NCBI GenBank assembly: GCA_002419385.1
Contig: DIFZ01000024.1
Coordinates: 749 to 64,748, forward strand
Direction: 5' to 3'
Length of the DNA stretch: 64,000 nt
From: Geobacter sp. UBA5735
Lineage (GTDB): Bacteria > Desulfobacterota > Desulfuromonadia > Geobacterales > Geobacteraceae
Shown here: positions 18,237 through 48,540 of the stretch, one piece after another
Position numbering within the stretch: the stretch's first letter is position 1
Layout: each line of letters begins with the position of its first letter
Position numbers and translations under genes: made by a program
Notes under the pieces: model-generated
Told to the model about the DNA's origin: nothing
Databases searched by the model: none
The model's input: the letters and a program-made list of their open reading frames with translations, nothing else

Positions 18237-18346
18237 TGGATATTCTCCCATATCCATTCTTTCCTTGGCCCCATGTTGCCCAGCATGGGGCCTCCCTTTA
18301 ACACCTTTCAGAAACTTCGGCAGTATACGGAAAAAGGATTCCTCAC

Positions 18347-18703: not shown

Positions 18704-18834
18704 GGGCCTCGCGGGAGGAAAACTCCGGCTGCCCTTCACCCTAGCTCCTCTGCCTGCTCCATGCAGCGGGAGTACACAGCCCGTCCACCAATCGGCAATA
18801 CCCGCGGACAGGCCGTTAATCACTGGTCCCCAGC

Positions 18835-19242: not shown

Positions 19243-19330
19243 ATCCAAAAACCTCCAATGAGATAACGGGCAGTCCATGCCCGGACAAAAACTGAATGCC
19301 TGCCGTCAAGCCGGCTGACACCGCCAGTAC

Positions 19331-20680
19331 CTACGGAGCTTTCATTTCTTCCATGACCAATGCCTTGCCCACCAGGTCCATCACGCCGCCGCACACCGTA
19401 GCCCCCATGCCGTAATGCTTCAGGACAAGGGGGAGTTGTGCTTTGCAGCTGGCACAGGGCGCAGCGACATAATCCAGCGGCTGAAGCGCTTGTATCTGCC
19501 GAGCTTTCATTTTTCCGAACTGCATGCGCAAATCGTGCATTTCGTCCATGAGCAGACCGGAACCGCCCCCGCAGCAGAAATTGCGCTCCCGGTTGGGGGA
19601 CATTTCGACGAATTCTTCTACGCAGGCCTTGACGATCTGCCTCGGCGAATCCAAAAGTCCTGTCCCTCTGCCATAGTTGCAGGAGTCGTGGAGCGTTGCC
19701 CTCAGGGGCAGCCGGGTGAGATTCAGCTCCGGGAGCCGTTTCGCCACGTAATCCAGGACATGTTCCAGATGAAAAGGAACGGGGCCGTTCGCACCTTCGG
19801 CATACATCCGGGCTGCACGCCAGCCATGGCCGCACTCTCCCAGAATCACATGCCTGGCACCGACCGCCGCCGCAGCCGTCCGCATACGTCGGTCATGCTT
19901 TTTAAGAATCTCCACATCGAAGTGAAGGCCGTAGTTCGCAGCCTCAAGCATGACCGAAGAGAGAGTCCAGTCGACTCCCAGTATGTGGAAGACCTTGGCT
20001 GCCCCCAGCAGTGTCTCCACATTGGTAAAGAGTTCTGATGATGACGGCAGGAACAGGACTTCGGTGTGCGGTTTGTCAACCGGAATCCTGATGTCGATGC
20101 CGGTTTCATCGCGCAATTCGTCTTCCAGAAAGGAGCAGCTGTCGATGATGGCCGGCTTGAGAATTCCGCTGTTGTTTCCCGTCTGGAGTTCATTGCGGCC
20201 GATAGTGACCAGAAAGCTCGGTGCAATCCCCATCCGGAGCAGGATGTTGCGCCCGGCAAGGACGATTTCTCCCGTGTCGATACCGCAGGGGCAATAAACG
20301 GCACAGCGGCGGCACACGGTGCACTGGTAAAAGTAGCTCGCCCACGTGTCGAGAGTATCGGCATCGAACTCCCGTGCGCCGGCAAAACCGCGGAACAGTC
20401 TGCCGGACCAGGTGAAATACCTCGCGAATATGCTGCGCAGCAGACCGGCCCGTGCTGCGGGCAGGTTATTGAAATCGTCCGTCCCCAGGTAACTGTGGCA
20501 GGCTTTGGCACACGCCCCGCACCTGGTGCAGGTTTCCAGCATGACCGAAAACGACCTGGCAAATTTCCTGAACTCATCCAGCAGGTCGAGAGTCCGTTCC
20601 TTCATGGAAGACTCGTCGACCTGTTCGATGCCGAGATGGTGCAAATCCTCCTTTTTCGCCGGATGATAGGGCAGGTTCAC
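19331..20680 (-). CDS. dsrK: DsrK/HmeD-like FeS protein with CCG domains
   Basis: 449 aa. It has CTRCGACAKACH...LLRSIF and CTVCRRCAVYCPCGID (2x[4Fe-4S]), plus C-terminal CCG motifs (HDSCNYGRG, NFCCGGGSG). There is a GTGA overlap with the DsrM-like stop. Confidence 0.75.
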   Translation of the reverse strand: MNLPYHPAKKEDLHHLGIEQVDESSMKERTLDLLDEFRKFARSFSVMLETCTRCGACAKACHSYLGTDDFNNLPAARAGLLRSIFARYFTWSGRLFRGFAGAREFDADTLDTWASYFYQCTVCRRCAVYCPCGIDTGEIVLAGRNILLRMGIAPSFLVTIGRNELQTGNNSGILKPAIIDSCSFLEDELRDETGIDIRIPVDKPHTEVLFLPSSSELFTNVETLLGAAKVFHILGVDWTLSSVMLEAANYGLHFDVEILKKHDRRMRTAAAAVGARHVILGECGHGWRAARMYAEGANGPVPFHLEHVLDYVAKRLPELNLTRLPLRATLHDSCNYGRGTGLLDSPRQIVKACVEEFVEMSPNRERNFCCGGGSGLLMDEMHDLRMQFGKMKARQIQALQPLDYVAAPCASCKAQLPLVLKHYGMGATVCGGVMDLVGKALVMEEMKAP

Positions 20681-21498
20681 GTCTGCCCTCCCCTATCCAC
20701 CGGTCCCTGTGCAGCTGCGTGAAGGGCAGCATGAACCCTGCGTGCCGCAAAGCGCGACCGGGGAGCGGCGCCTTCCGCGGTCGGACTGGCCGGGGGAGCT
20801 TCCATGAGCATCGCCCGGTTGACGATGGAACCGGCAGCGTGGAGCAGGCGTGAAAAGGGGAAATACAGCAACAGGATGTTCGCCAGCAGAAAATGGCTGA
20901 CGAACATCGGGCTGTCGGGCAGCGCCGCGGAACGGAACATGATGAGATCGCTCATGTAAGCCCTGACGGCGGGGAGATCCGCTTGAAAACCGGGCAGGTA
21001 CATCATGATTCCCGAGACGGCAAGCGCCATGAGCAGCAGCAGGTTGAAAAAATCTTCCGCCACGGAAAGCTTCCTGACCTCCGGATTGACGATTCTGCCG
21101 ATGAGAAGCGCGTAAAGCGAGAGCACCATCACGCCACCCGACAGCCCTCCCAGCAATTTTGACATGAATCGGCTCGTTCCAGGGCTCACGCCGACAAGGG
21201 TAAACTGGTCACGAAGACAGTATATCCCGACCACATGGCCTGCGATAACCAGCCCCAGAGACAGGTGGAACAGCCAGACCCGAAGCCAGAGTGCCTTGTC
21301 TTCGCGGAAAATGCGGCCGCAGAAAAAAAACTCCCCTGCGAGAGCCGCGACCTTTCCCATCGTGTTCCGTGGTGCGGGAAAAAGCGTGATGTGGAACGGG
21401 ACAGGCTTTTTCAACCATCCCGCGATCTTCATAACCGTTCCGGAGATGAAGACAGCACAAGCCGTATAGGGAAGAAGTGCTCCCAGCAGAAACTCCAT
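20677..21498 (-). CDS. dsrM: DsrM/NarI-like membrane cytochrome b
   Basis: 273 aa, about 5 TM helices. The start resembles nitrate reductase gamma subunit family proteins (LLPYTACAVFISGTVMKIAGWLKKPVPF). Conserved His residues lie in the helices. Confidence 0.7.
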   Translation of the reverse strand: MEFLLGALLPYTACAVFISGTVMKIAGWLKKPVPFHITLFPAPRNTMGKVAALAGEFFFCGRIFREDKALWLRVWLFHLSLGLVIAGHVVGIYCLRDQFTLVGVSPGTSRFMSKLLGGLSGGVMVLSLYALLIGRIVNPEVRKLSVAEDFFNLLLLMALAVSGIMMYLPGFQADLPAVRAYMSDLIMFRSAALPDSPMFVSHFLLANILLLYFPFSRLLHAAGSIVNRAMLMEAPPASPTAEGAAPRSRFAARRVHAALHAAAQGPVDRGGQT

Positions 21499-22761: not shown

Positions 22762-22958
22762 GAGAATTTTTCTGCCCGGCACCCATGGTCATCCCGCAAA
22801 TCCCGTAAACATTCTTGACGATGCGCGACCGAACGGGTAACCTTGCACATCGGCGTGATGGTCACTTACCGCGGACGGCCATGCTCCCGCGAACCTCCAG
22901 AAAAGATTCAAACGAGCAAATCGCCCCGGCCGACATTACAACCTGGATATTGAAATAC

Positions 22959-24119
22959 ATGAGAATCGGTTCATTCGAATTCAACCTTCGCGAGCTTTCC
23001 GGATCTCTCGGCGACATGGGCACCTTCGTGCCGCTGGCAGTCGGGTACATCGCGGTCTGTGGCATGGAGCCCGCAGGGATCCTGCTGATGATGGGCCTGG
23101 CGAATATTGCCACCGGCCTGTACTACCGGCTGCCAATTCCCATCGAACCGATGAAAGTCATCGCCGCCGCGGCAATTGCGCAGCAGTGGCCGCCGTCGAT
23201 GATCCTGGCATCAGGATTCTCCATGGGCATCATCTGGATGCTCATTGCCGCTACAGGGGCGGCCTCCCGTGTAGCGAACCTGACTCCTTCTGCGGTTGTT
23301 CGCGGCATCCAGGTAGCGTTGGGAATTCTTCTGGCAATTGAGGCCGGAAAACTGCTTTCCACCTCCTGGCTTCTGGGCGGACTGGGCCTTGCGATCGGCA
23401 TCGGCTTTCGGAAATGCCGCCATGCGCCGGCGGCCGTTGTGCTGGTTCTGCTGGGAGTCGCGATCATGATGATCAACGGCACGTTCAGCCAGGTCATGAG
23501 CCCGGAGATTACCCTTCCTCACCTTGCCACCTTCAGCCTCGGGGAAGTCTGGCAATCCCTGGTCCAGGCGGGATTTGCCCAGATACCGCTCACCGTGACC
23601 AATGCCACCATCGCCACATCGTGTCTCATTTCCTCCTACTGGCCCGAACGACAGGTCAGTCCGCAGCGGCTTTCCGTCAGCCAGGGGATTATGAACCTGT
23701 TTTCTCCTTTTTTCGGCGGCATGCCCATGTGCCACGGTGCGGGCGGCTTGGCCGGCCAGTACTATTTCGGAGCACGGACCGGCGGCACGAACATAATCGA
23801 AGGAATTATCGAAATCATTCTCGGACTCTTCTTCGCCGCTTCGGTGGCTGGGCTGTTTGCTTCTTTTCCCCAGGCCGTGACCGGAACCATGCTGATGCTC
23901 GTGGGATTTGAGCTCATAAAGTTTGCCCGTGACGTGCGTGGCTCGCGGGACACACTTGCCATGGCAATGACCGTTGCGGTATCCCTGGCGTCAAATATGG
24001 CATTCGGCTTCCTTGCAGGCTTGCTGGTAAACCGAATGCTGCCGTATATGAACACTGAAAAACAGCATCCGAAGAAACCCCGTCAATCTCCCCAAAGATC
24101 ATCCGGGAACGGAGAGTGA
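22959..24119 (+). CDS. MOT1-family (sulfate/molybdate transporter-like) membrane protein
   Basis: Start set at MRIGSFEFNLRELSGSLGDMGTFVPL (the track start at 22815 adds a non-membrane R-rich leader). It is polytopic. The GD(M/L)GT and ...MPMCHGAGGLAGQYYFGARTGG blocks are typical of the putative molybdate transporter family as I remember it. Confidence 0.7.
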   Translation: MRIGSFEFNLRELSGSLGDMGTFVPLAVGYIAVCGMEPAGILLMMGLANIATGLYYRLPIPIEPMKVIAAAAIAQQWPPSMILASGFSMGIIWMLIAATGAASRVANLTPSAVVRGIQVALGILLAIEAGKLLSTSWLLGGLGLAIGIGFRKCRHAPAAVVLVLLGVAIMMINGTFSQVMSPEITLPHLATFSLGEVWQSLVQAGFAQIPLTVTNATIATSCLISSYWPERQVSPQRLSVSQGIMNLFSPFFGGMPMCHGAGGLAGQYYFGARTGGTNIIEGIIEIILGLFFAASVAGLFASFPQAVTGTMLMLVGFELIKFARDVRGSRDTLAMAMTVAVSLASNMAFGFLAGLLVNRMLPYMNTEKQHPKKPRQSPQRSSGNGE

Positions 24120-25078: not shown

Positions 25079-25927
25079 CTAAAACATGAGACCGTATTCC
25101 CGCTCCAGGTACTGGAACGCCCTCTTGATCCGGGTTTTCAGCGTCACCTCGTTGACCGGCTTGAAAATGCAATCGAAGAAACCCTTGCCAAGCGCTTTGG
25201 CCTCTTCCTCTGTTTCGTTGCTGCCGGCCATCAGAATGAACGGAATATACCGCATTTCCGGCAGATTCCGCAGAGCATCGAACAGGCTGTATGCGTCAAG
25301 CTTCGGCACCATCTTTTCAGTCACGATAACCTGTGGCATCTCGGATATTGCGGTCTTGTAGGCCTCCATCCCATCAGCGGCAACCTTGACCCGATAACCT
25401 TCCTTGACAAGTATCTGATTCCACATCGTTGCCAGCAGGCTGTCTTCCCCGACGAGCAGAAGCGTTTTCTCCTGCTGGAAAGAAGGTTCCTTGCCCAGGT
25501 AGTGCCTGCAGATCGCCTCAGTTATTTCCTTTCTGGTGCCGATAAAGGGGATCACCTTCAGTCCATGATTGGCTGCGATATTGGACACGATTCTGGTCTC
25601 CGTCGGGTCCGCCATTGCCAGAGCAAGTCTGCCATTCTCGATTTTCAGGGGAAACAGCATGTTCTGCATCGCCACGTCCGCAGGAATGATGGCGAGCAAT
25701 TCGGCTGAGAAACTGTGCCGGGCGAAACTTCCGACCACCTTGTAGCCGTACTGTTCCGCAAGAGCCGCGGCAAGCTCTTCGCCGGTTATCAGTTCCGTCT
25801 CTTCAAGCAGGGCGCCCAACCGTTTCTTCAGCCTCTTGGATCGTGCAAGAGTCCTGAGCATGGTCTTTTCCGTAATGAGCCCCTGTTCAATGAATATCTC
25901 ACCCAGCAGCTTTCTCTTCGCCATCAT
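25079..25927 (-). CDS. MshEN (T2SSE_N-type) domain fused to a response-regulator receiver
   Basis: The N-terminus LLGEIFIEQGLITEKTMLRTLARSK...RLGALLEETELITGEELAAALAEQ resembles the tandem MshEN motif. The C-terminal half has LLVGEDS...D...KPV receiver features. Confidence 0.7.
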   Translation of the reverse strand: MMAKRKLLGEIFIEQGLITEKTMLRTLARSKRLKKRLGALLEETELITGEELAAALAEQYGYKVVGSFARHSFSAELLAIIPADVAMQNMLFPLKIENGRLALAMADPTETRIVSNIAANHGLKVIPFIGTRKEITEAICRHYLGKEPSFQQEKTLLLVGEDSLLATMWNQILVKEGYRVKVAADGMEAYKTAISEMPQVIVTEKMVPKLDAYSLFDALRNLPEMRYIPFILMAGSNETEEEAKALGKGFFDCIFKPVNEVTLKTRIKRAFQYLEREYGLMF

Positions 25928-26228
25928 CTCTCCCCGTTGCACGAATCTGTCTATTTCTCATCTTAGTTGCGTATTGTAACCCGAACAGGCCAACAAATCC
26001 ACCAGCAATGAATTCGCAGGCACCTCGACCGCCGCACAAAGTGCGCGTTCCATCCAGCGCATCCAGGAACCTCATCCATGACCTGCTGCAAACGCACAGG
26101 TCATTCCTGCCCGTGCTCTTTGGGGCCCGTCAATGCCAATCCGCAAAGAGTACTGATCGGCCGGACCGCAAAAAACTTTACCGCATTCGGTCAGAGCCCG
26201 TTTCTTGCCGACGACGCATCGGCCGCGG

Positions 26229-26408
26229 TTACCCGCTGTCCCGCGGCTTGTTGCATGACTCGTACAACTCGATCTGTTCCCTGAGCGAAAGCTTGCGCTT
26301 GCGGCAACAAGAATTCCCGCTGCGGAGACACATCCGGCACCTTGCGTCACTGCACCACTGGCAGGACCGGCAATCGGGACACGGGTGTTTTTTGACTTCG
26401 TCACTCAT
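26229..26408 (-). CDS. small cysteine-rich protein (hypothetical)
   Basis: MSDEVKKHPCPDCRSCQWCSDARCRMCLRSGNSCCRKRKLSLREQIELYESCNKPRDSG, with 10 Cys in 59 aa. Its ATG is embedded in the kinase stop (ATGAGTGA). Confidence 0.45.
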   Translation of the reverse strand: MSDEVKKHPCPDCRSCQWCSDARCRMCLRSGNSCCRKRKLSLREQIELYESCNKPRDSG

Positions 26409-28449
26409 CCGCCGATGCCTCCTCCGCTGCATTCACCCCGGCAGCTCCCCCAGTACGTTCGGACTGAGGCGGAGTGTCAAGCGCAGCCCTCACTGCCATC
26501 AAGAGTTCGCCAGGCTTAACCGGTTTCGACAAGAGCGGGACATCCCCTGCATCACACCCATGGGCAGACAGGATGTCACGAGTGTGCCCGCTCATAAAGA
26601 TGATCTTGACTTCCGGCCTGATCTTCCTGATTTCGCACATGATCCGGGCACCGTTCATCTTCGGCATGACAACGTCGCAGAGCAGCAGCCGGATATCGTC
26701 GGCATGTTCCCGGAATTTTTCCAGCACATCCTCTCCATCAGCAGCATCGATCACCTGGTACCCGTACTTTGTCAGGATATGCTTTGTCAGCATGCGGACG
26801 AACCGGTCATCCTCGGCAACAAGTACGGTCTCCCGGTTCCCTGCGGGAAGAAACAGGTTTTCATCCTTTTTACGCTCGATCGTGCCATCGATCAACGGCA
26901 GGTAAACAGAAAAAACCGTTCCTTTTCCCGTCTCGCTCTCAACCTCGATATATCCCTTGTGCTGGGTCACTATACCGAATGCCATCGACAGACCCAGGCC
27001 GGTCCCTTTACCGACTTCCTTGGTGGTAAAGAAAGGGTCGAATATCCTTTCCCTGGTATCCGGATCGATGCCGACGCCCGTATCTGCAACCGAAAGCCTG
27101 GCATACACGCCCGGGCAGTTTTTTTGCGTCTCATCCCCAGGGGAGGGAGAAACTTCGACCATTTCCGTCGTCATGGACAACCGCCCGCCCTGGGGCATCG
27201 CATCCCTGGCATTTGTCACAAGGTTGATGATTATCTGGTCGATCTGCAGCTCATCGGCCATGATGACCAGGTCATCAGTCGACAGCGCGATGCGAAAATC
27301 GATATTCTCCCCCACAAGCCTTTTCAGCAACAGACTGATGTCGCTGACGACAGAATTGAGGTTAACTGCCTTGGGATTCAGGATCTGGCTCCTGCTGAAG
27401 GCAAGCAGCCGCTTTGTCAGCTCCCCTGCCCTGCCCGCAGCTGCGATGATCTGCTCGACATAACTGCGGATGGAACTCTTGGCCTTGATACGACCTTGAA
27501 GCAGCTCTGCGCAATTTTCGATTACGGAAAGGATATTGTTGAAATCATGGGCCACCCCTCCCGCCAGCGTACCAACTGCTTCCATCTTGTGCGCCTGCCG
27601 CAGCTGATGCTCCAGGCGTTCCTGTTCCCTGTCCCTGATCTGGAGCGAATCCGTCATGGTATTGAACGCAGTAGCAAGCTTGCCGATTTCATCCCCAGTC
27701 TCCACCGGCACCTTTTCAAGGGTCGCCCCCGTTCCCATCATCCTGACTCTTTCCGTCAGCCTGTTGAGGGGCCGGGTTATCCCCTTGACGACAAAAAAGA
27801 CGATTACGGTCGCGGCAAGCAGGAAGAAGAGGCCGATGAGGCTGCTGTTCACAATCAGCTTGCCAAGAGATCGATTGAGGATGTTCTTGTCAAACACTAT
27901 CCGGACAAAACCTATCGTCCGATCCCTGTTGCCGAACATGCGGTCAGAGAAAAACAACGCCTCGTCTGTCGTCGTGTCCGGACCGGCCATCACGGGCGCC
28001 CAGAAGTCCACCATGTCCCTTTTTCGATCAATGGACAGGAATTGCCCCACCCTCCTCAGCCGGTTCAACGTTTCCCGTCTTTCCTGTTCAGGAATAGTAA
28101 ACTCCGTCTTCTTGCCTGAAATCCTCTGTTTGGTGTTTTCCGCCAGCACGACGCCTTCCTGGTTGTAGATGGAGACATACAATACTTCCTTGCCCTGCAG
28201 GACGCTGTCGACCGGACCCTTCAGCATGTCAGGGTTCTCCGCGAAGACACCCAGCCGAGCCGTGTCGGCAAGCAGTCTCGTCAGCACTTCGCCCTGCCAG
28301 TCCAGGTATTCCGTCTGTGACCGCCACTCCCTGAAAACAAAGTATCCGGTCAAGGACATGGAGAGAACTACAATGGATACTATGCTCACCAGGAATATCT
28401 TGGCAGCAAATGTTTCACTCAGCATCTTTGGCAAGTTTCTCATATTCAT
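26401..28449 (-). CDS. hybrid sensor histidine kinase/response regulator (2 TM, periplasmic domain, HAMP, HisKA, HATPase_c, REC)
   Basis: 682 aa. It has an H-box (VAHDFNNIL), N/G boxes (NLVTNARDAM, DTGVGI, GTGLGLS) and a C-terminal receiver (VLVAEDD...DVVMPKMNG...KP). Confidence 0.9.
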   Translation of the reverse strand: MNMRNLPKMLSETFAAKIFLVSIVSIVVLSMSLTGYFVFREWRSQTEYLDWQGEVLTRLLADTARLGVFAENPDMLKGPVDSVLQGKEVLYVSIYNQEGVVLAENTKQRISGKKTEFTIPEQERRETLNRLRRVGQFLSIDRKRDMVDFWAPVMAGPDTTTDEALFFSDRMFGNRDRTIGFVRIVFDKNILNRSLGKLIVNSSLIGLFFLLAATVIVFFVVKGITRPLNRLTERVRMMGTGATLEKVPVETGDEIGKLATAFNTMTDSLQIRDREQERLEHQLRQAHKMEAVGTLAGGVAHDFNNILSVIENCAELLQGRIKAKSSIRSYVEQIIAAAGRAGELTKRLLAFSRSQILNPKAVNLNSVVSDISLLLKRLVGENIDFRIALSTDDLVIMADELQIDQIIINLVTNARDAMPQGGRLSMTTEMVEVSPSPGDETQKNCPGVYARLSVADTGVGIDPDTRERIFDPFFTTKEVGKGTGLGLSMAFGIVTQHKGYIEVESETGKGTVFSVYLPLIDGTIERKKDENLFLPAGNRETVLVAEDDRFVRMLTKHILTKYGYQVIDAADGEDVLEKFREHADDIRLLLCDVVMPKMNGARIMCEIRKIRPEVKIIFMSGHTRDILSAHGCDAGDVPLLSKPVKPGELLMAVRAALDTPPQSERTGGAAGVNAAEEASADE

Positions 28450-28461: not shown

Positions 28462-29415
28462 TTACCTGACAATTCGTGCCCTGGCCCTCACATCATCGCT
28501 CATTTTGAGCCGCAGTTTTTTCGAGACTGTTTCATTGACGGTCAAGACCGTATGCTCAGCCTCAGCTGCCTGCAAATCAGCCGTCTTTGCGCCGGACAAA
28601 ATTCTGGCAGCCATTTCTCCCGCCTGGCGCCCCATATCAAAGGGGCTCGCATCAACCGACATCAAGGCGCCGACACCAACGTACTTGGCGGAAAACGCGC
28701 ATACCGGAATGCCGTTTCTCATGGAAAAAAGCATCATTGTCTCAACCGTATCAGGAGTTATCGCCGTTGTGTCCGGAATCATCCAGATTGCATCGACCGT
28801 CCCTTTCATGGCATGCAAAGATTGGGGAACCTCTCGCGGATTGGTCACTTCCTTTGTGCGGATCTCCATCCTGAGCGCCCTGGCCGATACAACGGCCCTT
28901 CTTACGAATTCTCCCGATTTGTCCGGATCATAAACAACACCGATTCTGCGGGCATCAGGCAGCACTCTCCTCATGGCGGACAACTGCTTTTCCGGGGAAA
29001 CCACCATGCTGACGCCGGCAACATTTCTTTCATGAGATAGAATCGAATGCGGATTCAGGACCATGAGGTAGACGAGGGGAATATGATGGTATTTCTTCAC
29101 CTTCCGCAGAGCTTCGGCCCCAACAGCCAGGATCAGGTCCGGCTTGCGCTCCCTGATGGCCTGATCCGCTTCATTGACCCCGAGGACCGCATAAACGGCT
29201 CCCCGGCCATTGCCCTCAAGGGCGGTCCTGAACCCTGCGACAGCCTCGTTGTAAGGGGTGATTCCCATACTCTGTACAACCAGCAGGTATGGATGGTGAG
29301 CCCTGGAATTAACACTGGGAATAATGAGAAAGAAAAGTATGAAGACAATAATACGAAGCATAATCCGGTTCGTATGGACAAATGAGATACGTTTTGATAC
29401 GTTACCTTGCATCAA
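28462..29415 (-). CDS. ABC_sub_bind-type periplasmic substrate-binding protein (sensor partner)
   Basis: 317 aa with a signal peptide (an alternative start MLRIIVF lies at 29361). The fold pattern resembles the putative ABC substrate-binding family that is often found beside sensor kinases. Confidence 0.6.
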   Translation of the reverse strand: MMQGNVSKRISFVHTNRIMLRIIVFILFFLIIPSVNSRAHHPYLLVVQSMGITPYNEAVAGFRTALEGNGRGAVYAVLGVNEADQAIRERKPDLILAVGAEALRKVKKYHHIPLVYLMVLNPHSILSHERNVAGVSMVVSPEKQLSAMRRVLPDARRIGVVYDPDKSGEFVRRAVVSARALRMEIRTKEVTNPREVPQSLHAMKGTVDAIWMIPDTTAITPDTVETMMLFSMRNGIPVCAFSAKYVGVGALMSVDASPFDMGRQAGEMAARILSGAKTADLQAAEAEHTVLTVNETVSKKLRLKMSDDVRARARIVR

Positions 29416-31507: not shown

Positions 31508-32608
31508 GTGCCGAAACATACCCTAACAACCGGGTTCTGCTCTTCCAACGATCCCGTGCTCCGTTTCACGCCGACCTGTGATCCTCTCGCGACACATGTT
31601 CATCTGTACAACCTCCTGACCCCCGGGGTTATCCGGGACCGATGCCTTCAACGACATATCGAACGCCTGCGCCACCGTTTCCGGAACTACGCTGCGTGCT
31701 ACCCCTACGGGCTTTGGGCGCCAAGGCTCGTGGTGAACGATGAGATGAGATCGTTAACGGAAACCTATCTGCCCCTGGAGGAAATGGATTCGGCCTTCCG
31801 ACGCCTGTTTGAGCTGGCTCTCAGATATCGTCCGACACCGCTGGCAACGATAGCCGTCTCAGCCACAGACTGGCTCGATTTCCTTACGCAGCACCGGTCA
31901 ACCGTTTCATCAGCCAACCCGGCACACCTGCTGCAGAGCCTTTGCGACAATGAAACGTTCCGCGTCAGCTTCCTGTTCGAGCATTTCCTGCCACGGCGCA
32001 ATGGCGGCGGATTCAACCGCTATCCCCGCCAGTTGGGGTTTCTGAAATGCCATCTCGAACAGAAATTCCGCGGTGACGGAGATGTAATCCGCTGCCTGGA
32101 CGCCGCCTGCGGGACCGGCGAAGGGACTTACGATCTCGCCGGGCTGCTCAGGGACTGCGGGATTCCCGTCGCACGGCAGGGTATCAACGGCTCAACCATC
32201 GAACCTCTGGAGCTCTTCGCCGCAGCCCACGGTTTTTTTCCCCATGACCCGGCAAGGCAATCGAACTTCAGGAGCGTCATGCGATCGCTTATGGATGATA
32301 ATGTGCTTGAAGGAGTGGGGTTTCAGCTTGAGGACATAGCGCTCCCGGGCGGAAAAGACGCAAGCGCCTACGACGTCATCGTGTGCAACGGCCTGCTGGG
32401 AGGCCCGGCCCTTCACGTGGAGGACGATGTGATGCGGACGGTTGCCGCTCTTGCAGGACGGCTTCGGCCCGGCGGCATTTTCCTGGCCGCTGACCGCTTC
32501 CACGGCGGCTGGAAGAAAACCATGCCACCTGCGTGCCTGATGGAAATGGTGTCGCAATGCGGGTTGAATGCAATCATTGCCGGAGAGGGGATCGCTGCCG
32601 TGAAATGA
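31508..32608 (+). CDS. SAM-dependent methyltransferase with an unknown ~180-aa N-terminal domain
   Basis: It has motif I (IRCLDAACGTGEGTYDL) and VIVCNGLLGG. The start is a GTG and is uncertain. Confidence 0.6.
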   Translation: MPKHTLTTGFCSSNDPVLRFTPTCDPLATHVHLYNLLTPGVIRDRCLQRHIERLRHRFRNYAACYPYGLWAPRLVVNDEMRSLTETYLPLEEMDSAFRRLFELALRYRPTPLATIAVSATDWLDFLTQHRSTVSSANPAHLLQSLCDNETFRVSFLFEHFLPRRNGGGFNRYPRQLGFLKCHLEQKFRGDGDVIRCLDAACGTGEGTYDLAGLLRDCGIPVARQGINGSTIEPLELFAAAHGFFPHDPARQSNFRSVMRSLMDDNVLEGVGFQLEDIALPGGKDASAYDVIVCNGLLGGPALHVEDDVMRTVAALAGRLRPGGIFLAADRFHGGWKKTMPPACLMEMVSQCGLNAIIAGEGIAAVK

Positions 32609-32642: not shown

Positions 32643-34574
32643 TTACTTCAGGCAGATCCTGCGAATTTCGTGGATGTCGGTCAGGTGCTGAAAAACCTTC
32701 AGGATGCCGTCCTGTTTCAGGGTGGTCATGCCGCAGCCGACGGCAAGGTCCCTGATCTCCGCGGTCTCGGGCTTTTTCTTGATCAGGCTCTTCATGGCAT
32801 CGTTGCAATCCAGCAACTCATGTATGCCGAGGCGGCCATGGTAACCGGTATTGTCGCACAAATCGCACCCCACCGGTTCGGCAATGGTGATATCTTCCTT
32901 CGACAGGCCGGTTTCCTGGAACGCAGCGCTGCCGTATTCATCGATTATTTCATCAAGTTCACGCTCTGTCGGCTTGTAGACCCTTTTGCACCCCTTGCAC
33001 AATCTCCGTGCAAGCCTCTGGGCAAGGATGCAGATGAGCGAATCCGAAAAGCTGAAGGGGTCGAGCCCCATCTCAAGCAGCCTCGTGACCGTTTCCGCTG
33101 CACTGTTGGTATGCAGCGTGGACAGCACCAGGTGACCGGTCAGGGATGCCTCGATGGCAATGGACGCTGTTTCCTCGTCCCGCATTTCGCCGACCATGAT
33201 CACATCCGGATCCAGGCGCAGAAACGAGCGCAGCGTTGCGGCAAAAGTCAGCCCGATCCGCGGGTTGACCTGCACCTGGCGCAATCCCCGCTGGGTGATT
33301 TCAACCGGGTCCTCGGCAGTCCAGATCTTCGTTTCAGGAAGATTTATCTTGGTTATGGCCGAGTGGAGCGTGGTGGTCTTGCCCGAACCGGTCGGTCCGA
33401 CCACAAGGATGAGGCCGTACGGCTTCAATACGGCACGCTGGAACACTTCCATGTTCCTTGGAGCAATGCCCAGATCGTCGAACGCAATGGGATCACCGGT
33501 ATGGAGCAGACGGATGACGACATCCTCCAGGTGTCCCACTGTCGGCATCGTCGCGACCCGCAACTCAACATCAATGGGGCCGAAGCGCCTGAAATTGATC
33601 TTGCCGTCCTGCGGCTTCCGGCGCTCGGCTATATCCAGCTCAGACATTATTTTGATGCGTGAAGGTATGGCATACTTGTATTTGTAGGGGATTTTCTGAT
33701 ACACCTTGCAGCGTCCGTCGACGCGCATCCTCACGATGACGTCCCGTTTGCCCGGATACGGCTCGATATGTATGTCCGATGCCCGGTTCTGGTAGGCATC
33801 ATAGATGATCTTGTTGACCAGCTTGACGATGACGCTGTCCCGCTCGGTGACTTTCTTGACTTCGTCTTCAATTTCCGGCTCTTCCGAGAAGTCCACCCTG
33901 GTCAGAATCTCAGCAATGCTGTCCGGAATATTCAGCTCTTCTTCTTCGTCCCTCTGGCTGACAGGATGAATGCCGTTACGGTACAGCCGCTGCTGGGCAG
34001 CCAGGATTTCCGATTCCTTCGCAATGACCGGTATTACCTTGAGACGCGTCGCGGCCTCAAGCTCCATCAACTCGTGAAGCTTCACCGGAGAGGCCATGGC
34101 GAGGGTCATGGTGCTCCCGATCTTGGAAATGGGGACCACCCGCTGCCTGCGCGCATAACTGGCGTTGAGTACACGGGCAAGCGAGGAATCGATCGTCAGG
34201 TTGTCCAGGGAAGCGAAGGGCAGATCGTACTGGATGGAAATGGCCCTGGCTATCTGGTTCTCAGACAGAAACGACAATTTGAGAAGCGACTTTTCAAGCG
34301 GAATCCCGTCCTTCCGGCTCAGCACGCGGGCCTCTTCGAGACGTTTTTCGTCCAGCTGGTATTCATACTGCAGGATATCCACCAGCTTTTTCCGCTTGCC
34401 CGACTGCTCGAGAACATAGTTGAGGTCCGATTCCCGCAGAAACCCGAGCCTGCACAACAGCCTGCCCACTGTCTCGCCCGGAGAGGTTTCCTGCAGCTTG
34501 AGAGCCTCGGCAAGCTGCTGCTCGTTGATGAGCTTGTTTTCAATAAGGATTTCGCCAAGTCTTTTTTTCGACAT
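32643..34574 (-). CDS. GspE/PilB/MshE-family secretion ATPase with N-terminal MshEN-type domain
   Basis: 643 aa. It has Walker A (GPTGSGKTTT), Walker B (IMVGEMRD), a His box (TGHLVLSTLHTN) and a tetra-Cys motif (CKGC...CDLC). The N-terminus is RLGEILIENKLINEQQLAEALKLQ...LGFLRESDLNYVLEQ. Confidence 0.9.
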   Translation of the reverse strand: MSKKRLGEILIENKLINEQQLAEALKLQETSPGETVGRLLCRLGFLRESDLNYVLEQSGKRKKLVDILQYEYQLDEKRLEEARVLSRKDGIPLEKSLLKLSFLSENQIARAISIQYDLPFASLDNLTIDSSLARVLNASYARRQRVVPISKIGSTMTLAMASPVKLHELMELEAATRLKVIPVIAKESEILAAQQRLYRNGIHPVSQRDEEEELNIPDSIAEILTRVDFSEEPEIEDEVKKVTERDSVIVKLVNKIIYDAYQNRASDIHIEPYPGKRDVIVRMRVDGRCKVYQKIPYKYKYAIPSRIKIMSELDIAERRKPQDGKINFRRFGPIDVELRVATMPTVGHLEDVVIRLLHTGDPIAFDDLGIAPRNMEVFQRAVLKPYGLILVVGPTGSGKTTTLHSAITKINLPETKIWTAEDPVEITQRGLRQVQVNPRIGLTFAATLRSFLRLDPDVIMVGEMRDEETASIAIEASLTGHLVLSTLHTNSAAETVTRLLEMGLDPFSFSDSLICILAQRLARRLCKGCKRVYKPTERELDEIIDEYGSAAFQETGLSKEDITIAEPVGCDLCDNTGYHGRLGIHELLDCNDAMKSLIKKKPETAEIRDLAVGCGMTTLKQDGILKVFQHLTDIHEIRRICLK

Positions 34575-34655
34575 GAAACACTTCCGCCTACCTGATTAGT
34601 GCATCCGGGCAACCGACATCGTCAGCAGTCGGTAAAAAAGGCCCACGAGCAAAAG

Positions 34656-36152
34656 CTATCTGCCGAGCACATCATACCCCATGAAACCCAGGAGATCCCT
34701 GGTCAGGGGATCGATTCCGACATCGGTCACGAAGACGGCGCCCCCTTTTCGCCCGGCGGCAGCTATCTCCACACCCGACATCCGCATGGCAAACGGCGCG
34801 TTTTTCGGGCTCCACAGATCATGGGAGCCATAGCGGGCAGGCTTTTTCAAGACCGGCGACAGCTTCCCGGAAATCGTTCTGAGGCTGTCTGACGGAAGAA
34901 TGCTGACAACACTGTATCCGCGCTGCTGCAGGAGCTTCAGCAGCCCATGCCGGACCGGGTCCTGCTGCGAGAAGGACACGACGACCTTTTTTCCGCTTTC
35001 CCGGAAATAACGGTCCGCCCTGACTGCCAGGACGACACCGCTCTTCGAACCGTCATCGAGCTGTATGTCCCGATCCTTTTCGAACTCCACCGATGCCGCG
35101 GTCAAGAGAGAATCCACCGTTTCCCGCTGATCCGAACCCTTGACGCTGTAGAGCCGGTTGATCCTTCCCATCGGCCGGCCCGGGTCAGTGGGCACGGCAT
35201 CGATCACCTTGAAACCCTCCCGATCGAGCAGCGAGCAGAGCGCCGAAGGCAATCCCATCAAGTGGTCCGACACATTGAGCAGCACGATATCATGGTTCAG
35301 GAGGCTGTCTGCTTTTTTTTCAACCTTGAAGTCGGCGTTGACCGTAACGACCGGATCCAAACCAAAGGAAAAACGGAATCCCTCCTCCACGGAATAGAAT
35401 CGTGCAGAATCCAGCAAGGCGGCATAGAAACGCCGCGGATCGGCTGGATCAGCTGTCACGATATGTACCGTGGAATCGTTTTCCTCGATGATGGACTTCA
35501 CCTGTGGAGAAAGGGCGCCCCTGGAATCGACAACTATCCTGCCGCCCTCACTGTCGTGGAATACCGGATAGACAGCCGGGTCGAGTGAAAGGGAAAAACT
35601 CCGGTCCCGCAGCGCAAGTCCGTCGTCCTTCTCCGTTTCGCCGGAAACCATCTTCTCCCAGACATCCCTTGCCTGCAGCAGTCTTTCACCGCGGTCGACG
35701 TTGGTCGTTACCGGCATTCTGAAAGAAAGGCTCAAAGACCGCGAACCGCTCAGGCTGGCCCCAACGGGAGACCTGCGCCGAGCATACTTTGGCGTCCTTT
35801 TCCTCGTGCCATGCCGGGCGCTTTTGACTGTCCGGCCCATACGGTGTCGAGCTTTACCCCTGCCGGAAGATGCAGTGACCCGCCGGCCAGACGTGCGCTT
35901 CGATACTGCAGCAGACGTTGCGGATTTTTTTCCCGTGGCGGGAGCAGTCGCGGCAGCCCCTGCAGACGGCAGGCGCTGTTTGCTGTCCCCGGAATCCCGG
36001 TCGTTCCCGTGCGTCTTTTTCCCTCCCGGTCGAAGCTGCTTGAGGTCGATGTCATACGTGGGATCGATGGCAAGGGTCACGTCGGCATGACCGGCCAGAA
36101 ATCCAAAAAGAATGCCGAAGACTGAATAGCGGATCCATGGAGCGAGCTTCAT
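34656..36152 (-). CDS. hypothetical membrane-anchored/exported protein with a Lys/Arg/Ser/Ala-rich basic tract
   Basis: 498 aa. It has an N-terminal hydrophobic segment (SVFGILFGFLAGHADV), then about 100 aa of low-complexity basic sequence (KKSATSAAVSKRTSGRRVTASSGRGKARHRMGRTVKSARHGTRKRTPKYARRR), then about 350 aa with no motif I recognise. Confidence 0.6.
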   Translation of the reverse strand: MKLAPWIRYSVFGILFGFLAGHADVTLAIDPTYDIDLKQLRPGGKKTHGNDRDSGDSKQRLPSAGAAATAPATGKKSATSAAVSKRTSGRRVTASSGRGKARHRMGRTVKSARHGTRKRTPKYARRRSPVGASLSGSRSLSLSFRMPVTTNVDRGERLLQARDVWEKMVSGETEKDDGLALRDRSFSLSLDPAVYPVFHDSEGGRIVVDSRGALSPQVKSIIEENDSTVHIVTADPADPRRFYAALLDSARFYSVEEGFRFSFGLDPVVTVNADFKVEKKADSLLNHDIVLLNVSDHLMGLPSALCSLLDREGFKVIDAVPTDPGRPMGRINRLYSVKGSDQRETVDSLLTAASVEFEKDRDIQLDDGSKSGVVLAVRADRYFRESGKKVVVSFSQQDPVRHGLLKLLQQRGYSVVSILPSDSLRTISGKLSPVLKKPARYGSHDLWSPKNAPFAMRMSGVEIAAAGRKGGAVFVTDVGIDPLTRDLLGFMGYDVLGR

Positions 36153-36253
36153 GGAAATCCCTCCTTGATAGGTTTAAACGCCAGCCACGTTCGCACTCGC
36201 GCCAGCACTGGGGGGCTGCCGGCCAGAGAGCCGGAATGATGCAACGGCACGTT

Positions 36254-37444
36254 TCAGGGAAATACAATGACAACGGCACGAATCGTACGGCTGTCGCTCT
36301 CCCTGTAGGTGACCGTTTCGGCAGATCCTTCAAGCACGCCTTTTTCCATGAGGAACCCATCCCTGGGGAGCGCTTGTCCAGCCCGCGCGGGAACCGGATA
36401 CCCAAGCGCTCTGAAGACGGACGCCAGGTACGGCTCCGAAAGCGACTGGCCTTCCGGCGCAAGGATCTGAAGGGCCTTCATCGTGCCGCCGTTCCTGAAG
36501 AGCCGGAAGTCCGCCTGTGCAGACACATACCGCTCCCACCCCGGATGCCGGGAGGAATAGGCCTGATCACGCCATTCGGAGTGGATGAACGACGGCAGCC
36601 CTTCTCTCACCGTGCGGCGGAACAGCTCGCGGTCCGCCTGCGCGGCCGGGAGGGCCGTCTGTGCCGTTTCCCTGCCAGGTGCTGACGGCAATGATACCCT
36701 GTTTTCCCTGATCAGCAAGACATAAACCGATCCGGCAACCGCTCCCGCAAGGGCGAGCAGCAGCAGCGCCCTTCTCAACCTGCCTGTTCCGCGTCTCCCG
36801 CTCTCTGCTCCATCGGCCGGAAAAGCAACCTCAAGGTCCGTGCCATATGATGCGGATACAACTCCCTGGCCATCCGGGCCCTGGACGGGCACTGCGGCCA
36901 TCTCTGGCTGTGCGGGTTGCCCCGCCTCTTCCCGAAGGGGGTCGTCACCAGCATCGGGCAGCCGCCTTATCGATTCTCCACCGCCGGCGCCTGCAATCAG
37001 CGCAGGAGCAGCATTCGCGAGATCCCCGACAGTATCGGACTTCTCCCAAACCGTTTCTTTGATATCCTCCAGCCAGTCGTCAGGATACAGCCGAGCGACA
37101 AGATCGGCGAATTCATCCTGAAACTGCTGCTGGGAAACGGGCATGCGCATCCATTCATCGCACCAGGCCGCGTTTTTCCTGAGTTTCGGCCCGGTCTCGT
37201 CCAGGTAGACGATCTTCGGGGAAGCCGAGCCGAGAAGCGACTTGATATGACGGGCGGCCGTCTCACCGGAAACCGAATGTATCGAGTTCTGGATGAAAAC
37301 CAGGGCAGGCCGATTCTCGAAAACCTCCTTCAGTCCGTGATCGAAGTTGTCAGCCCAGCGGATCTTCGACCTGAAACGAGGTTGGAAATACTCAATGAGC
37401 CGCGCCACCCTGACGTCATTGGAAATGAAAAAGATATTGAGCAT
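36254..37444 (-). CDS. hypothetical single-pass membrane protein with receiver-like N-terminal domain
   Basis: 396 aa. The N-terminus MLNIFFISND...ALVFIQNSI...KIVYLDE looks CheY-like but lacks the phospho-acceptor Asp (my reading). It continues with a Pro/Ala-rich linker, a TM helix (ALLLLALAGAVAGSVYVLLI) and a C-terminal domain of about 150 aa. Confidence 0.55.
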   Translation of the reverse strand: MLNIFFISNDVRVARLIEYFQPRFRSKIRWADNFDHGLKEVFENRPALVFIQNSIHSVSGETAARHIKSLLGSASPKIVYLDETGPKLRKNAAWCDEWMRMPVSQQQFQDEFADLVARLYPDDWLEDIKETVWEKSDTVGDLANAAPALIAGAGGGESIRRLPDAGDDPLREEAGQPAQPEMAAVPVQGPDGQGVVSASYGTDLEVAFPADGAESGRRGTGRLRRALLLLALAGAVAGSVYVLLIRENRVSLPSAPGRETAQTALPAAQADRELFRRTVREGLPSFIHSEWRDQAYSSRHPGWERYVSAQADFRLFRNGGTMKALQILAPEGQSLSEPYLASVFRALGYPVPARAGQALPRDGFLMEKGVLEGSAETVTYRESDSRTIRAVVIVFP

Positions 37445-37590
37445 ATGACCCCTCTTCAGCCGCGTATCATCACATGCAAGACTCTATATTGTCAATAGTT
37501 TTCGCCGGGGAGCACTACCTGGACCATGCCTTGCCGAAAACAGTGCAAGCAACCGGTCACCGTATATGTTCAAGAATGGCATGAGGGGTC

Positions 37591-37614
37591 AATGTGCTGC
37601 ACTGCCAGCACATT
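37591..37614. promoter_or_regulatory. 9-bp inverted repeat AATGTGCTG-N6-CAGCACATT
   Basis: Read directly. It lies about 150 nt upstream of the 396-aa gene start. No U-run follows, so it looks more like an operator than a terminator. Confidence 0.3.
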
Positions 37615-47383: not shown

Positions 47384-47764
47384 TCACTGCCGCGCAAGTG
47401 TCAGCTTGATGGTCGCCGGATAGACTCTGAGGACGCTGATTTCCGGCGGAAGCGCCAGACGCTTCTCCATGCCGCTGAAGACAACGGTCCCCTCACCCAG
47501 TTGTGCGGCATCAAGCTCCAGGGAAAGCCGTTCCGGATGGAATCCGACAAACCTGATCCGCGAACCCGCAACGCTGACCATGATGCTTGCGGGAAGTTTC
47601 CCGCGGACCACCAGCCCGCCGGAGACATTCCGCAACGTGAGGGGCACCGTTATGTCCATCTCCACGGTGGTGAATCCCTTGGCCAGCATCCAGAGGGCCA
47701 CCGCAAGAAGCAGGGCCAGCAACTTGATGGCCAGATTGCCGGATAAAAGGCGCCACGCTATCAC
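47384..47764 (-). CDS. cdaR: YbbR-domain protein (CdaA regulator-like), short
   Basis: The GTG start forms GTGA with the cdaA stop, and GAGGTGG lies upstream. It has a TM helix and then a single YbbR-like repeat. Confidence 0.6.
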   Translation of the reverse strand: MIAWRLLSGNLAIKLLALLLAVALWMLAKGFTTVEMDITVPLTLRNVSGGLVVRGKLPASIMVSVAGSRIRFVGFHPERLSLELDAAQLGEGTVVFSGMEKRLALPPEISVLRVYPATIKLTLARQ

Positions 47765-48540
47765 AGGAACCACCTCTTCTGTTTCAGATGGATGAGACGC
47801 TTCAGCATCTTGCGCAAGGCATTCTGGTCGACTCCCCGCGTTATCCTGCCCCTGTGGGCCAGTGAAATCGCCCCTGTTTCCTCCGAAACCACCAGGACTA
47901 CGGCATCCGTCACCTCTGACAGGCCTATCGCCGCCCTGTGCCTGGTCCCGAGAGTCTTGCTCAGTTCCGGATTGCGGGAAAGCGGCAGGAAACATCCCGC
48001 CTTGGTGAGCTTGCCGTTCTGGATTATCACTGCCCCGTCGTGAATGGGCGAATAGGGGAGGAAGATCGACATGATGATTTCGCTGGAAACCTTCGCGTCG
48101 ATCTCCGTTCCGACCTCCAGGAAATTCTCCACTTCCACGTCACGCTCGAGCACGATCAGTGCGCCGATCTTCCTTCCGGAAAGGAGTTCGGCAGAGGTGA
48201 CCAGTTCTTCCACCAGCGTTGATACGCCATCAGCCTGTTCCCGGAAGAAACCGCTCCGGCCCATCGCGGACAGGGCGCGCCGGATATCGTGCTGGAAAAC
48301 CACGATCAGAATGAGGATGATGCCGTTGAAAAACCCGCTCAGAATCCAGTCGAGCGTGCGCAGGCCGTAGAGGTGGGAAAGGAAATAGACGCAGGAGAGC
48401 CCCACGAGACCGATCAGCAGGCGAATGGCGATGGCCCCTTTAATGAGAAGCATGAACTGGTAGAGGAATACTGCGACAAGTATGATGTCGAGCAGGTCCA
48501 GCCAACCAACTGTTCCCAAAGGAGTCATCATCGAAAGCAC
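47761..48540 (-). CDS. cdaA: diadenylate cyclase
   Basis: 259 aa. It has three N-terminal TM helices and a DisA_N domain (GALIVLERD, HDGAVII, GTRHRAA). Confidence 0.9.
   Translation of the reverse strand: MLSMMTPLGTVGWLDLLDIILVAVFLYQFMLLIKGAIAIRLLIGLVGLSCVYFLSHLYGLRTLDWILSGFFNGIILILIVVFQHDIRRALSAMGRSGFFREQADGVSTLVEELVTSAELLSGRKIGALIVLERDVEVENFLEVGTEIDAKVSSEIIMSIFLPYSPIHDGAVIIQNGKLTKAGCFLPLSRNPELSKTLGTRHRAAIGLSEVTDAVVLVVSEETGAISLAHRGRITRGVDQNALRKMLKRLIHLKQKRWFL

Follow-up and report, generated by a model that had tools for sequence, protein, structure and literature searches.

The stretch of DNA analysed here, 64,000 nucleotides of contig DIFZ01000024.1 from Geobacter sp. UBA5735 (the window), carries on its minus strand, at 32643-37444, three co-oriented open reading frames (ORFs) in the order p3–p2–ATPase. 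The last of them encodes an ATPase of the PilB/GspE/MshE family, and the products of the other two, which we call p3 and p2, appear from profile searches to belong to uncharacterised families. The three genes, from the ORF calls on the window, are as follows.

36254-37444, minus strand: p3 gene, 396 amino acids (aa), bitopic inner-membrane protein
34656-36152, minus strand: p2 gene, 498 aa, predicted periplasmic protein
32643-34574, minus strand: gene for a PilB/GspE/MshE-family hexameric ATPase, 643 aa, from the ORF call and the Pfam T2SSE match

ATPases of the PilB/GspE type are normally read as motors of type IV pili (T4P) or type II secretion systems (T2SSs), and orphan copies tend to be passed over or taken for spare motors. 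Here, the orphan copy has two dedicated, conserved partners outside the described families. The ATPase family itself is known; what appears to be new is a PilB-family ATPase that carries a motif for cyclic di-GMP (c-di-GMP) together with dedicated partners of a non-canonical kind. The unit is defined by the domain make-up of its three proteins, the conserved order of its genes and the lack of the standard partners in the window. The conservation of such a unit with no pilus or secretion genes nearby suggests an unstudied use of the motor family.

Three co-oriented, closely spaced genes had been reported in the original prediction, and the ORFs exist as described there. The gap between p3 and p2 is 101 nucleotides (nt) and that between p2 and the ATPase gene is 81 nt; a consensus scan of the coding strand revealed no terminator-like site in either. 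Since the gaps are short (81-101 nt here, with an overlap in the related locus L025), co-transcription of p3, p2 and the ATPase is suggested. DNA identical to this locus is found on metagenome contigs from hydrocarbon-degrading enrichments and in the genome bin GCA_002347465.1.

The regions mapped on the ATPase are listed below.

32658-33845, minus strand: catalytic N2E+CTE region, residues 244-639, Pfam T2SSE 391 bits
33975-34229, minus strand: N1E / MshEN_C alpha-beta subdomain, residues 116-200, PF05157 E 4e-19
34401-34562, minus strand: tandem MshEN_N-type c-di-GMP motif pair, residues 5-58

A full catalytic set had been proposed for the 643-aa protein, and every motif was located, with the Asp box at residue 306, Walker A at 393, Walker B at 455 and the His box at 480. 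Together with the T2SSE score, these motifs place the ATPase in the PF00437 superfamily. The tetracysteine zinc site typical of extension-type PilB/GspE members is also present (CKGC at 526 and CDLC at 570). The score against the NCBIfam PilB equivalog TIGR02538 is 545.5 bits, for a cut-off of 675.65, and the score against the GspE equivalog TIGR02533 is 479.4 bits, for a cut-off of 630.25. Because both scores are below the cut-off, the ATPase is a member of the PilB/GspE family and yet, on the NCBI criteria, neither a PilB nor a GspE. Among solved structures, those of Geobacter PilB (5zfr and 5tsg, and also 6olj) come closest, aligning with about 407 bits over residues 96-641. Geobacter PilB and the ATPase share the lineage, the zinc tetracysteine site and an MshEN-like N-terminal motif, although the ATPase is about 55-75 aa longer at its N-terminus. 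PilB sits in a pilB-pilT4-pilC-pilS-pilR-pilA cluster (PMC8557921), whereas the ATPase sits with p3 and p2. Among the PADLOC anti-phage defence models, p2 and p3 found no match, and the ATPase matched only mad8, at the P-loop level (21.7 bits).

The N-terminus of the ATPase matches the NCBIfam c-di-GMP motif model NF053729 over residues 5-57 with 62.9 bits, above the cut-off of 38. We compared it with the relaxed 24-residue motif pattern of Wang et al. (PMC5013675). Motif I (residues 5-28) has one mismatch to this pattern, a Lys at position 10, and motif II (residues 35-58) has two, at positions 1 (Thr) and 7; the spacer between them is six residues long, compared with five in the pattern. The sequence thereby has the layout of an MshEN receptor domain, that is, two tandem 24-residue motifs in a unit of about 53 residues. 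At the constrained motif positions, 15 orthologues with 61-100% overall identity have either the same residue or a conservative substitution. This conservation, with the NF053729 score above its cut-off, upholds the earlier claim of an N-terminal tandem MshEN c-di-GMP motif, and binding of c-di-GMP by the ATPase N-terminus is predicted from the motif.

Both Vibrio cholerae MshE and Pseudomonas aeruginosa PA14_29490 resemble the ATPase in having a tandem 24-residue c-di-GMP motif, an N1E-type subdomain and a complete core (PMC5013675). The V. cholerae MshE structure 5htl aligns to ATPase residues 61-167 and not to residues 5-58; thus, the motif pair is an extra N-terminal unit. It precedes a second, degenerate, helical MshEN_N-like segment (residues 61-115), which lies ahead of the N1E subdomain and in which the relaxed-motif scan found no Gly-containing motif. 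Compared with MshE, the ATPase therefore carries the motif pair as an additional copy ahead of the degenerate segment, with one and two deviations and the six-residue spacer. MshE also differs in that it is encoded in the MSHA pilus operon with the platform protein MshG, pilins and a secretin, none of which lies within 64 kb here. The motif-pair region aligns to the c-di-GMP domains of Thermus thermophilus PilF, which also has more than one MshEN-type unit, of which only some bind c-di-GMP (PMC11731258). PilF differs in being a bona fide Thermus T4P motor of 900 aa with three GSPII domains.

Regarding the partners that such a motor would normally have, a Pfam scan was made of 40 window ORFs, which comprised the large ones and the neighbours of the three-gene unit, a few medium-sized ORFs being left out. 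No GspF/PilC platform, pilin, prepilin peptidase or secretin was found among these 40 ORFs, nor does the gene set of the identical contig contain one, and no reading frame of the window contains a prepilin cleavage motif. The absence of platform, prepilin, peptidase and secretin genes, first claimed for a distance of 10 kb, extends to the whole 64-kb window. In a T4P or T2SS machine the ATPase is encoded with a platform, pilins, a peptidase and a secretin; this arrangement was found neither in the window nor in the roughly 25 related loci examined. The module does not amount to a full T2SS or T4P.

The p3 protein was analysed with an AlphaFold2 model built on 38 sequences, from which the following parts were assigned.

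37049-37444, minus strand: cytoplasmic pseudo-receiver domain, residues 1-132, AlphaFold2 and Foldseek
36707-36784, minus strand: transmembrane (TM) helix, residues 221-246, AlphaFold2 helix
36257-36640, minus strand: periplasmic alpha/beta domain, residues 269-396, predicted local distance difference test score (pLDDT) 89-96

An acidic, disordered linker (residues 133-218, pI 4.1) precedes the TM helix, and the cytoplasmic flank of the helix is Arg-rich (RRGTGRLRR). By the positive-inside rule, p3 is predicted to have its N-terminus inside and its C-terminus outside. In Foldseek, residues 1-132 matched many receiver domains with a probability of 1.0 and TM-scores on the target of 0.66-0.80, those at E ~1e-6 having 0.72-0.80, and the model has the CheY-like (beta-alpha)5 fold with helix alpha4 replaced by a loop. 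A Foldseek search of p3 against a viral library returned receivers only, and the periplasmic domain gave nothing there. The top receiver match is the pseudo-receiver of Myxococcus xanthus FrzS (2i6f and 2gkg; TM-score on the target 0.72-0.75), a protein of motility/envelope regulation that, like p3, is without a functional phospho-acceptor. Unlike p3, which is anchored in the membrane and carries a periplasmic domain, FrzS is a soluble protein that has a coiled-coil tail. The rank of FrzS among the receivers is not discriminating, since the E-values lie within tenfold of those of many ordinary receivers.

In the p3 model, strand beta3 ends in Q52-N53 without an acceptor Asp, and Q52 is near-invariant across the 38 sequences. 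There is also no K-P after beta5, where receivers have a conserved Lys. These positions were assigned from the secondary structure of the model and not from a residue-level structural alignment. The hhalign comparison of the p3 N-domain profile with single canonical receiver sequences gave no usable alignment; thus, the absence of the acceptor Asp rests on the model secondary structure and the family alignment. With one TM helix and a receiver fold in AlphaFold2 and Foldseek, p3 agrees with the single-pass membrane protein, with a receiver fold lacking the acceptor Asp, that had been proposed from the sequence.

The most conserved surface of p3 is the invariant VSGET..RHIKSLLG block at residues 58-72. 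An invariant LP..(W)..HPGWERY motif marks the periplasmic domain, which is retained in the distant version of locus L029 and in the Geobacter metallireducens-like version; a PDB profile search found no sequence relative of this domain among solved structures, its fold not having been searched separately. Two homologue searches returned 49 and 58 clusters, all of about 390-410 aa, the second profile search adding almost nothing. In the p3 family of 38 members, Pfam Response_reg matched six weakly (best E 0.017), and no Pfam or NCBIfam match was significant, with none to a T2SS, T4P or FliL family. Several homologues bear the JGI name FliL. The profiles do not bear out this name: no member of the 38 has a Pfam match to it, and the only PDB match (9hmf, E 0.76) covers the TM segment.

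The p2 protein is divided into an N-terminal signal peptide, a basic tract and a conserved C-terminal region.

36069-36152, minus strand: p2 signal peptide, residues 1-28, predicted cleavage after TLA, exposing the conserved IDPxFDLD
35703-36029, minus strand: p2 basic disordered tract, residues 42-150
34659-35699, minus strand: p2 conserved C-terminal region, residues 152-498 (347 aa), about three tandem alpha/beta modules

In the alignment of the family, the N-terminus has a hydrophobic stretch 13-15 residues long, small residues at -3/-1 (AxA-type) and a conserved junction in which A is followed by [IML]DPxF[DE]LD. Because the hydrophobic region is short and the AxA-type site is conserved in the family, p2 is probably cleaved and secreted into the periplasm rather than anchored. 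The original prediction had described an anchored protein with a basic tract of about 100 aa and a large unrecognised domain; the tract (about 110 aa) and the unrecognised domain stand, while the anchor is replaced by a probable cleavage site. The tract (residues 42-150) contains 25% K+R and 3% D+E, with a pI of 12 and pLDDT <50. In six of the 17 family members a LysM domain occupies the position of the tract, and 11 of the 17, including the window p2, have a tract-like composition. As LysM is absent from the window p2, its basic tract may be a substitute attachment to the wall or to an anionic polymer.

The AlphaFold2 model of the p2 C-terminal region has pLDDT values mostly of 80-90 and repeated beta-alpha-beta-beta-beta-alpha-beta elements, and modules 2 and 3 are related to each other (hhalign E 5e-5). 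The only fold matches in Foldseek are weak ones to ring-building domains of PrgH from type III secretion (E 0.012, probability 0.44, TM-scores 0.12/0.25). Neither p2 nor its C-terminal 347 aa has a Pfam or NCBIfam match, LysM being the only family found among 16 homologues, and full-length and domain-only profile searches of the PDB found no sequence relative of p2. Related modules within the unit were also sought. No relationship was found between the p3 periplasmic domain and the p2 modules, and none between the p2 modules or the p3 C-domain and the ATPase N1E, a comparison prompted by a stray Pfam MshEN match with E 0.18.

Close homologues of p2 number 17, and an exhaustive profile search returned 375 representative clusters at E<=1e-3. 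In the distant relatives, the signal peptide is followed by FDIDxKELD, the short N-terminal motif found after the signal peptide in the whole p2 family, then by LysM, a linker rich in Pro and Ala and one copy only of the last module; LysM was found in nine of the ten that were scanned, mostly as weak matches. The FDIDxKELD motif is duplicated in some of them (P0173 and P0189), so a short linear docking motif is suggested. More distant relatives of p2 can also be found without p3, and the neighbourhoods of two distant relatives (P0220 and P0166) were uninformative.

The order p3–p2–ATPase was found in 14 genome-bin loci reached via p3 and, in addition, in L025/L026, L112 and a G. metallireducens-like contig. 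Viewed from the ATPase, all full-length relatives that are at least 61% identical and have a readable upstream region (17 of 17) have p3 and p2 directly upstream. An eighteenth ATPase locus, L033, has its contig cut inside p2. A survey of this kind had been set beforehand as a check on the unit, which came through it with its gene order kept at every readable locus. A metagenome scan starting from the ATPase gave three full-length relatives with 61-64% identity, of which two have p3 and p2 upstream and the third is cut inside p2; at 77 more distant PilB/GspE loci from the same scan, which serve as a negative control for the linkage, neither p3 nor p2 is adjacent. Identity among the loci is 61-92% for the ATPase and much lower, about 30-66%, for p3 and p2. 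The named relatives of the unit are all Geobacteraceae. The genomic contexts differ: the unit lies among Amt and inositol-phosphatase genes here and between the cation-efflux gene czcD and pheA in the G. metallireducens-like contig. This difference in context argues for selection on the unit itself.

The p3–p2 pair is also found without an adjacent ATPase, in L021, L027 and L028 and, as a distant pair, in L029. L028 and L025 have common flanks, with an inositol phosphatase gene and a TPR-DUF11 gene upstream and B12-radical-SAM genes downstream, and the difference between them is the clean presence or absence of two ATPases plus a fasciclin gene. Since the pair also exists without the ATPase, p3–p2 forms the older core, to which the ATPase, now closely tied to it, was joined later, together with a PilT-like ATPase in many relatives. 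The distant pair of L029 (3357-14100) comprises a p3-like protein of 498 aa and a p2-like protein of 403 aa with LysM. Its neighbours are the gene for an actin-fold ATPase of the Hsp70/MreB-like kind, accompanied by four small uncharacterised genes, and genes for a lytic transglycosylase, a 356-aa PilT-like ATPase and a protein with a PatA_N domain.

In many relatives the unit is part of a larger cluster. Upstream of p3 lie genes for a protein of about 730 aa with YbgF/CpoB-like TPR and DUF11/Ig repeats and for a protein of about 220-290 aa with LysM and TPR. Downstream, directly after the PilB-like ATPase, many relatives have a convergent gene for a PilT/PilU-family ATPase of 527-565 aa. This protein scores 408 bits against TIGR01420 (cut-off 319) and is fused to a near-canonical c-di-GMP motif (53 bits). 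Examples are given below.

L012 4687-6897 and 6988-7662: two TPR envelope genes, also in L013, L014, L019, L024, L025, L027 and L028
L012 12699-14291 and L025 14810-16393, minus strand: convergent MshEN-PilT ATPase, also in L019 and L024
L038 3921-6275, plus strand: GAF-N1E-ATPase of 784 aa, 69% identical over the catalytic part; L035 is similar

The 64-kb window has no homologue of the two TPR proteins or of the PilT-like ATPase. An earlier description of the three genes as a possible minimal machine is too narrow, in that the pair exists without the ATPase and a larger cluster is present in many relatives. Outside the clade, the closest relatives of the catalytic core are 69% identical over residues 219-643; where the ATPase has the motif pair, they carry a GAF domain. 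The ATPase gene of L038, the only one of these whose neighbours were scanned, adjoins a gene for a class-II cAMP-phosphodiesterase-like metallo-beta-lactamase and has no pilus genes nearby. The wider ATPase clade looks, from these domain layouts, like a group of sensor-fused motors away from pilus operons.

Geobacter sulfurreducens is reported to have five PilB homologues. PilB (GSU1491), GspE (GSU0328) and PulE (GSU1783) lie in pilus or T2SS clusters; for GSU0435 and GSU2609, the sole description given is 'PilB/PulE/GspE family ATPase' (PMC8557921). GSU2609 is expressed in anode biofilms (PMC8557921). The Geobacter gene called mshE is GSU0435, next to pilT3 (PMC5065972). The convergent MshEN-PilT ATPase of the relatives is probably of this gene type, and GSU0435 would thus be PilT-like and distinct from the ATPase described here. 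GSU2609 presumably lies beside pheA in the G. sulfurreducens genome, which is consistent with the synteny of locus L006. By this synteny, and not by sequence, GSU2609-2611 are likely to be the G. sulfurreducens counterparts of the unit. In the literature searched, GSU2610 and GSU2611 have no mention and GSU2609 appears in one table only; as far as this literature goes, the three-gene unit is unstudied.

To interpret the unit, we compared it with the GspE-GspL-GspM/GspC subcomplex. Both have a cytoplasmic hexameric ATPase, a bitopic adaptor with a docking domain and a periplasmic alpha/beta domain, and a periplasmic partner. The cytoplasmic domain of GspL is actin-like, whereas that of p3 has a receiver fold, and no GspF platform, pseudopilin or secretin is present here. 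The GspL, GspM, GspC, PilM, PilN, PilO and PilP profiles gave no match at E<=1 in the 38 p3 and 17 p2 members, and the NCBIfam and PDB profiles gave none. The possibility that the partners are known T2SS or T4P components, raised at the outset as a check, was thus addressed by Pfam, NCBIfam, PDB profile and fold searches, with no match. By analogy, the subcomplex is most plausibly a guide to how the module works. A second likeness is to FimV/TsaP, peptidoglycan-binding LysM proteins of T4P, in which a periplasmic LysM, a linker and further domains tie a machine to the wall, as would LysM in six of the 17 p2 family members and in the distant relatives. The window p2 differs in having a basic tract and not LysM, and no sequence or fold match to FimV/TsaP was seen, no direct alignment having been made.

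We read the unit as a lineage-specific Geobacteraceae envelope module built around a c-di-GMP-sensing PilB-family ATPase, with p3 as the tether and p2 as the scaffold, and give this reading a probability of roughly 45%. From the features above we infer how its parts might act. The p3 protein would be a functional analogue of GspL: at the inner membrane, its pseudo-receiver would dock the ATPase hexamer by the N-terminal domains of the latter. The periplasmic domain of p3 would hold p2, perhaps via the N-terminal IDPxFDLD motif of p2, and p2 would attach to peptidoglycan or another anionic envelope polymer. Binding of c-di-GMP at the ATPase N-terminus would gate ATP-driven conformational work, which p3 could pass across the membrane to the periplasmic scaffold, giving inside-out control of an envelope or surface structure. 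The envelope-associated neighbours in the relatives (the YbgF-like TPR protein with DUF11 repeats, the TPR protein with LysM and the MshEN-PilT fusion) argue for this reading.

Several points weigh against it. PilB-family motors work via a polytopic GspF/PilC platform, and to our knowledge there is no precedent without one. As read from the sequence, the c-di-GMP motif is not canonical throughout: position 10 of motif I is a K, motif II has T at position 1 and the spacer is six residues long. The p3 pseudo-receiver is equally conserved in loci without an adjacent ATPase; therefore, ATPase docking would not be its sole role, unless an ATPase is encoded elsewhere. Lastly, a ring-forming p2 is no more than a lead, drawn solely from the Foldseek match to PrgH (E 0.012, probability 0.44).

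If the envelope module is as we read it, the p3 pseudo-receiver offers a concrete, testable alternative to GspL/PilM docking of such motors, and the module is an added candidate output of c-di-GMP signalling at the cell envelope. It is found in model electroactive genera, the G. metallireducens-like contig included, and G. sulfurreducens genetics is available. The roles of the extra PilB homologues in G. sulfurreducens pilus and nanowire biology are disputed. A more specific version, which we put forward tentatively and hold to be unlikely, is a PilB-family motor that works without pilins or a GspF/PilC platform: a c-di-GMP-gated hexamer on the pseudo-receiver adaptor would drive or switch a wall-bound scaffold of new repeats, with the MshEN-PilT ATPase opposing it in many relatives. 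If true, this would be a new, Geobacteraceae-specific branch of type IV filament-derived machines, possibly tied to surface or biofilm biology, and a motor acting without a platform protein would widen the range of roles of the ATPase family.

As the main alternative, the ATPase may be an auxiliary, c-di-GMP-controlled extension motor for a T4P or T2SS encoded elsewhere, often paired with MshEN-PilT, with p3–p2 as docking or landmark factors like FimV/TsaP and FrzS; we regard this as possible, if doubtful. Geobacter has one type IVa pilus cluster and two T2SS-like clusters that such a motor could serve, and pilus systems do share motors, as with the MSHA and competence pili of V. cholerae. The closest solved relatives of the ATPase are Geobacter PilB proteins, and PilB-like and PilT-like ATPases stand together in the related clusters, as antagonistic pilus motors do. 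The LysM and wall-binding features of the p2 homologues fit landmark factors, and the distant p3–p2 pair of L029 lies near a PilT-like ATPase and a PatA_N protein. Extra PilB homologues of G. sulfurreducens have also been treated as possible back-up motors (PMC8557921, PMC4974642). However, every pilus and T2SS cluster of G. sulfurreducens has its own ATPase (GSU1491, GSU0328 and GSU1783; PMC8557921). The unit never adjoins pilus genes in the roughly 25 loci examined, and the NCBIfam scores are under the PilB and GspE equivalog cut-offs. In addition, pilB gspE and pilB mshE double mutants behave like the pilB single mutant (PMC4974642), but the mshE of that work is GSU0435, another gene.

The presence of p3–p2 without the ATPase leads to another account, in which the pair is a self-sufficient envelope or signalling device, for example a wall-associated sensor or scaffold, and the ATPase is a mere neighbour in one sub-lineage. 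The pair stands alone in L021, L027 and L028, with the ATPases cleanly present or absent between the same flanks; the distant pair of L029 has no PilB-like ATPase, and more distant p2 relatives can also be found without p3. From the ATPase side, however, the linkage is complete, in 17 of 17 readable loci and in at least two genomic contexts, and the short intergenic gaps suggest co-transcription. We consider this account improbable. That p2 is a new peptidoglycan-remodelling enzyme, with LysM or the basic tract for targeting, a catalytic domain and control from the cytoplasm by p3 and the ATPase, is very improbable: LysM is typically fused to wall hydrolases, the first p2 module is rich in invariant polar residues (DGG, FYSVEE and DFKxEK) and the distant pair of L029 has a lytic transglycosylase gene next to it, but the Pfam, NCBIfam and PDB searches gave no likeness to a hydrolase family, the distant p2 relatives retain only the last module with few polar invariants and Foldseek gave no consistently supported enzyme match.

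Upstream of p3, two further features were mapped.

37466-37495, minus strand: sigma-70-like promoter candidate, TTGACA, 18-nt spacer, TG-GATGAT, 10 of 12 consensus positions
37591-37614, no strand assigned: inverted repeat, perfect 9+9 bp with a 6-nt loop, AATGTGCTG-gcagtg-CAGCACATT

The promoter candidate ends 22 nt ahead of the p3 start codon. In L112, whose p3 is 85% identical, the roughly 66 nt preceding the p3 ATG, the promoter candidate included, are near-identical with two substitutions, and the remaining spacer has diverged. The inverted repeat had been put forward as an operator. It exists as a perfect 9+9 repeat, but it is one of 11 perfect inverted repeats of at least 9 bp in the window and is absent upstream of p3 in the 17 related loci scanned (L022 was left out). 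In L112, both of its arms are altered without compensating changes, while the promoter block is conserved. Because it is not conserved in relatives and has decayed in L112, we rejected the operator role and excluded the repeat from the system; it is probably incidental, or a stem-loop of the upstream gene.

On one flank, the unit is accompanied by genes for an inositol monophosphatase, a rubrerythrin, a histidine kinase, Amt and P-II, and on the other by a 366-aa protein, a TonB-dependent receptor and a sensor-kinase cluster; these are genes of housekeeping function or without a relation to the unit. The 366-aa ORF (31508-32608, plus strand) is convergent, its end being 34 nt away from the stop codon of the ATPase gene. 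It shows a sub-threshold likeness to S-adenosylmethionine (SAM) methyltransferases, in a CheR-type SAM-binding region with E ~1e-3, and is kept in the close relative L112 but absent from loci at a greater distance.

A second candidate c-di-GMP receptor, as judged from its motifs, is encoded 7 kb from the ATPase at 25079-25942 on the minus strand; other loci show no linkage between it and the three-gene unit. This 287-aa protein has a tandem MshEN motif (one and two mismatches, five-residue spacer), N1E and a C-terminal receiver, whose acceptor position is apparently Glu (VTEKMVP). Its architecture resembles that of Bdellovibrio Bd2402 (PMC5013675). The gene lies downstream of those for a HAMP hybrid histidine kinase (26401-28449) and a periplasmic-binding-like protein (28462-29415).

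Elsewhere in the window, a CdaA-type diadenylate cyclase (DAC and CdaA_N), which is a c-di-AMP synthase, is encoded at 47761-48540 on the minus strand and adjoins folP, ftsH and tilS. A gene cluster for molybdenum and iron-sulfur oxidoreductases occupies 11001-21498. It includes a xanthine-dehydrogenase-family molybdopterin enzyme fused to 2Fe-2S domains (13500-16340), a heterodisulfide-reductase-like CCG/4Fe-4S protein, a NarI-like membrane subunit and XdhC and MobA-like maturation genes. Finally, a MOT1-type molybdate transporter is encoded at 22815-24119.

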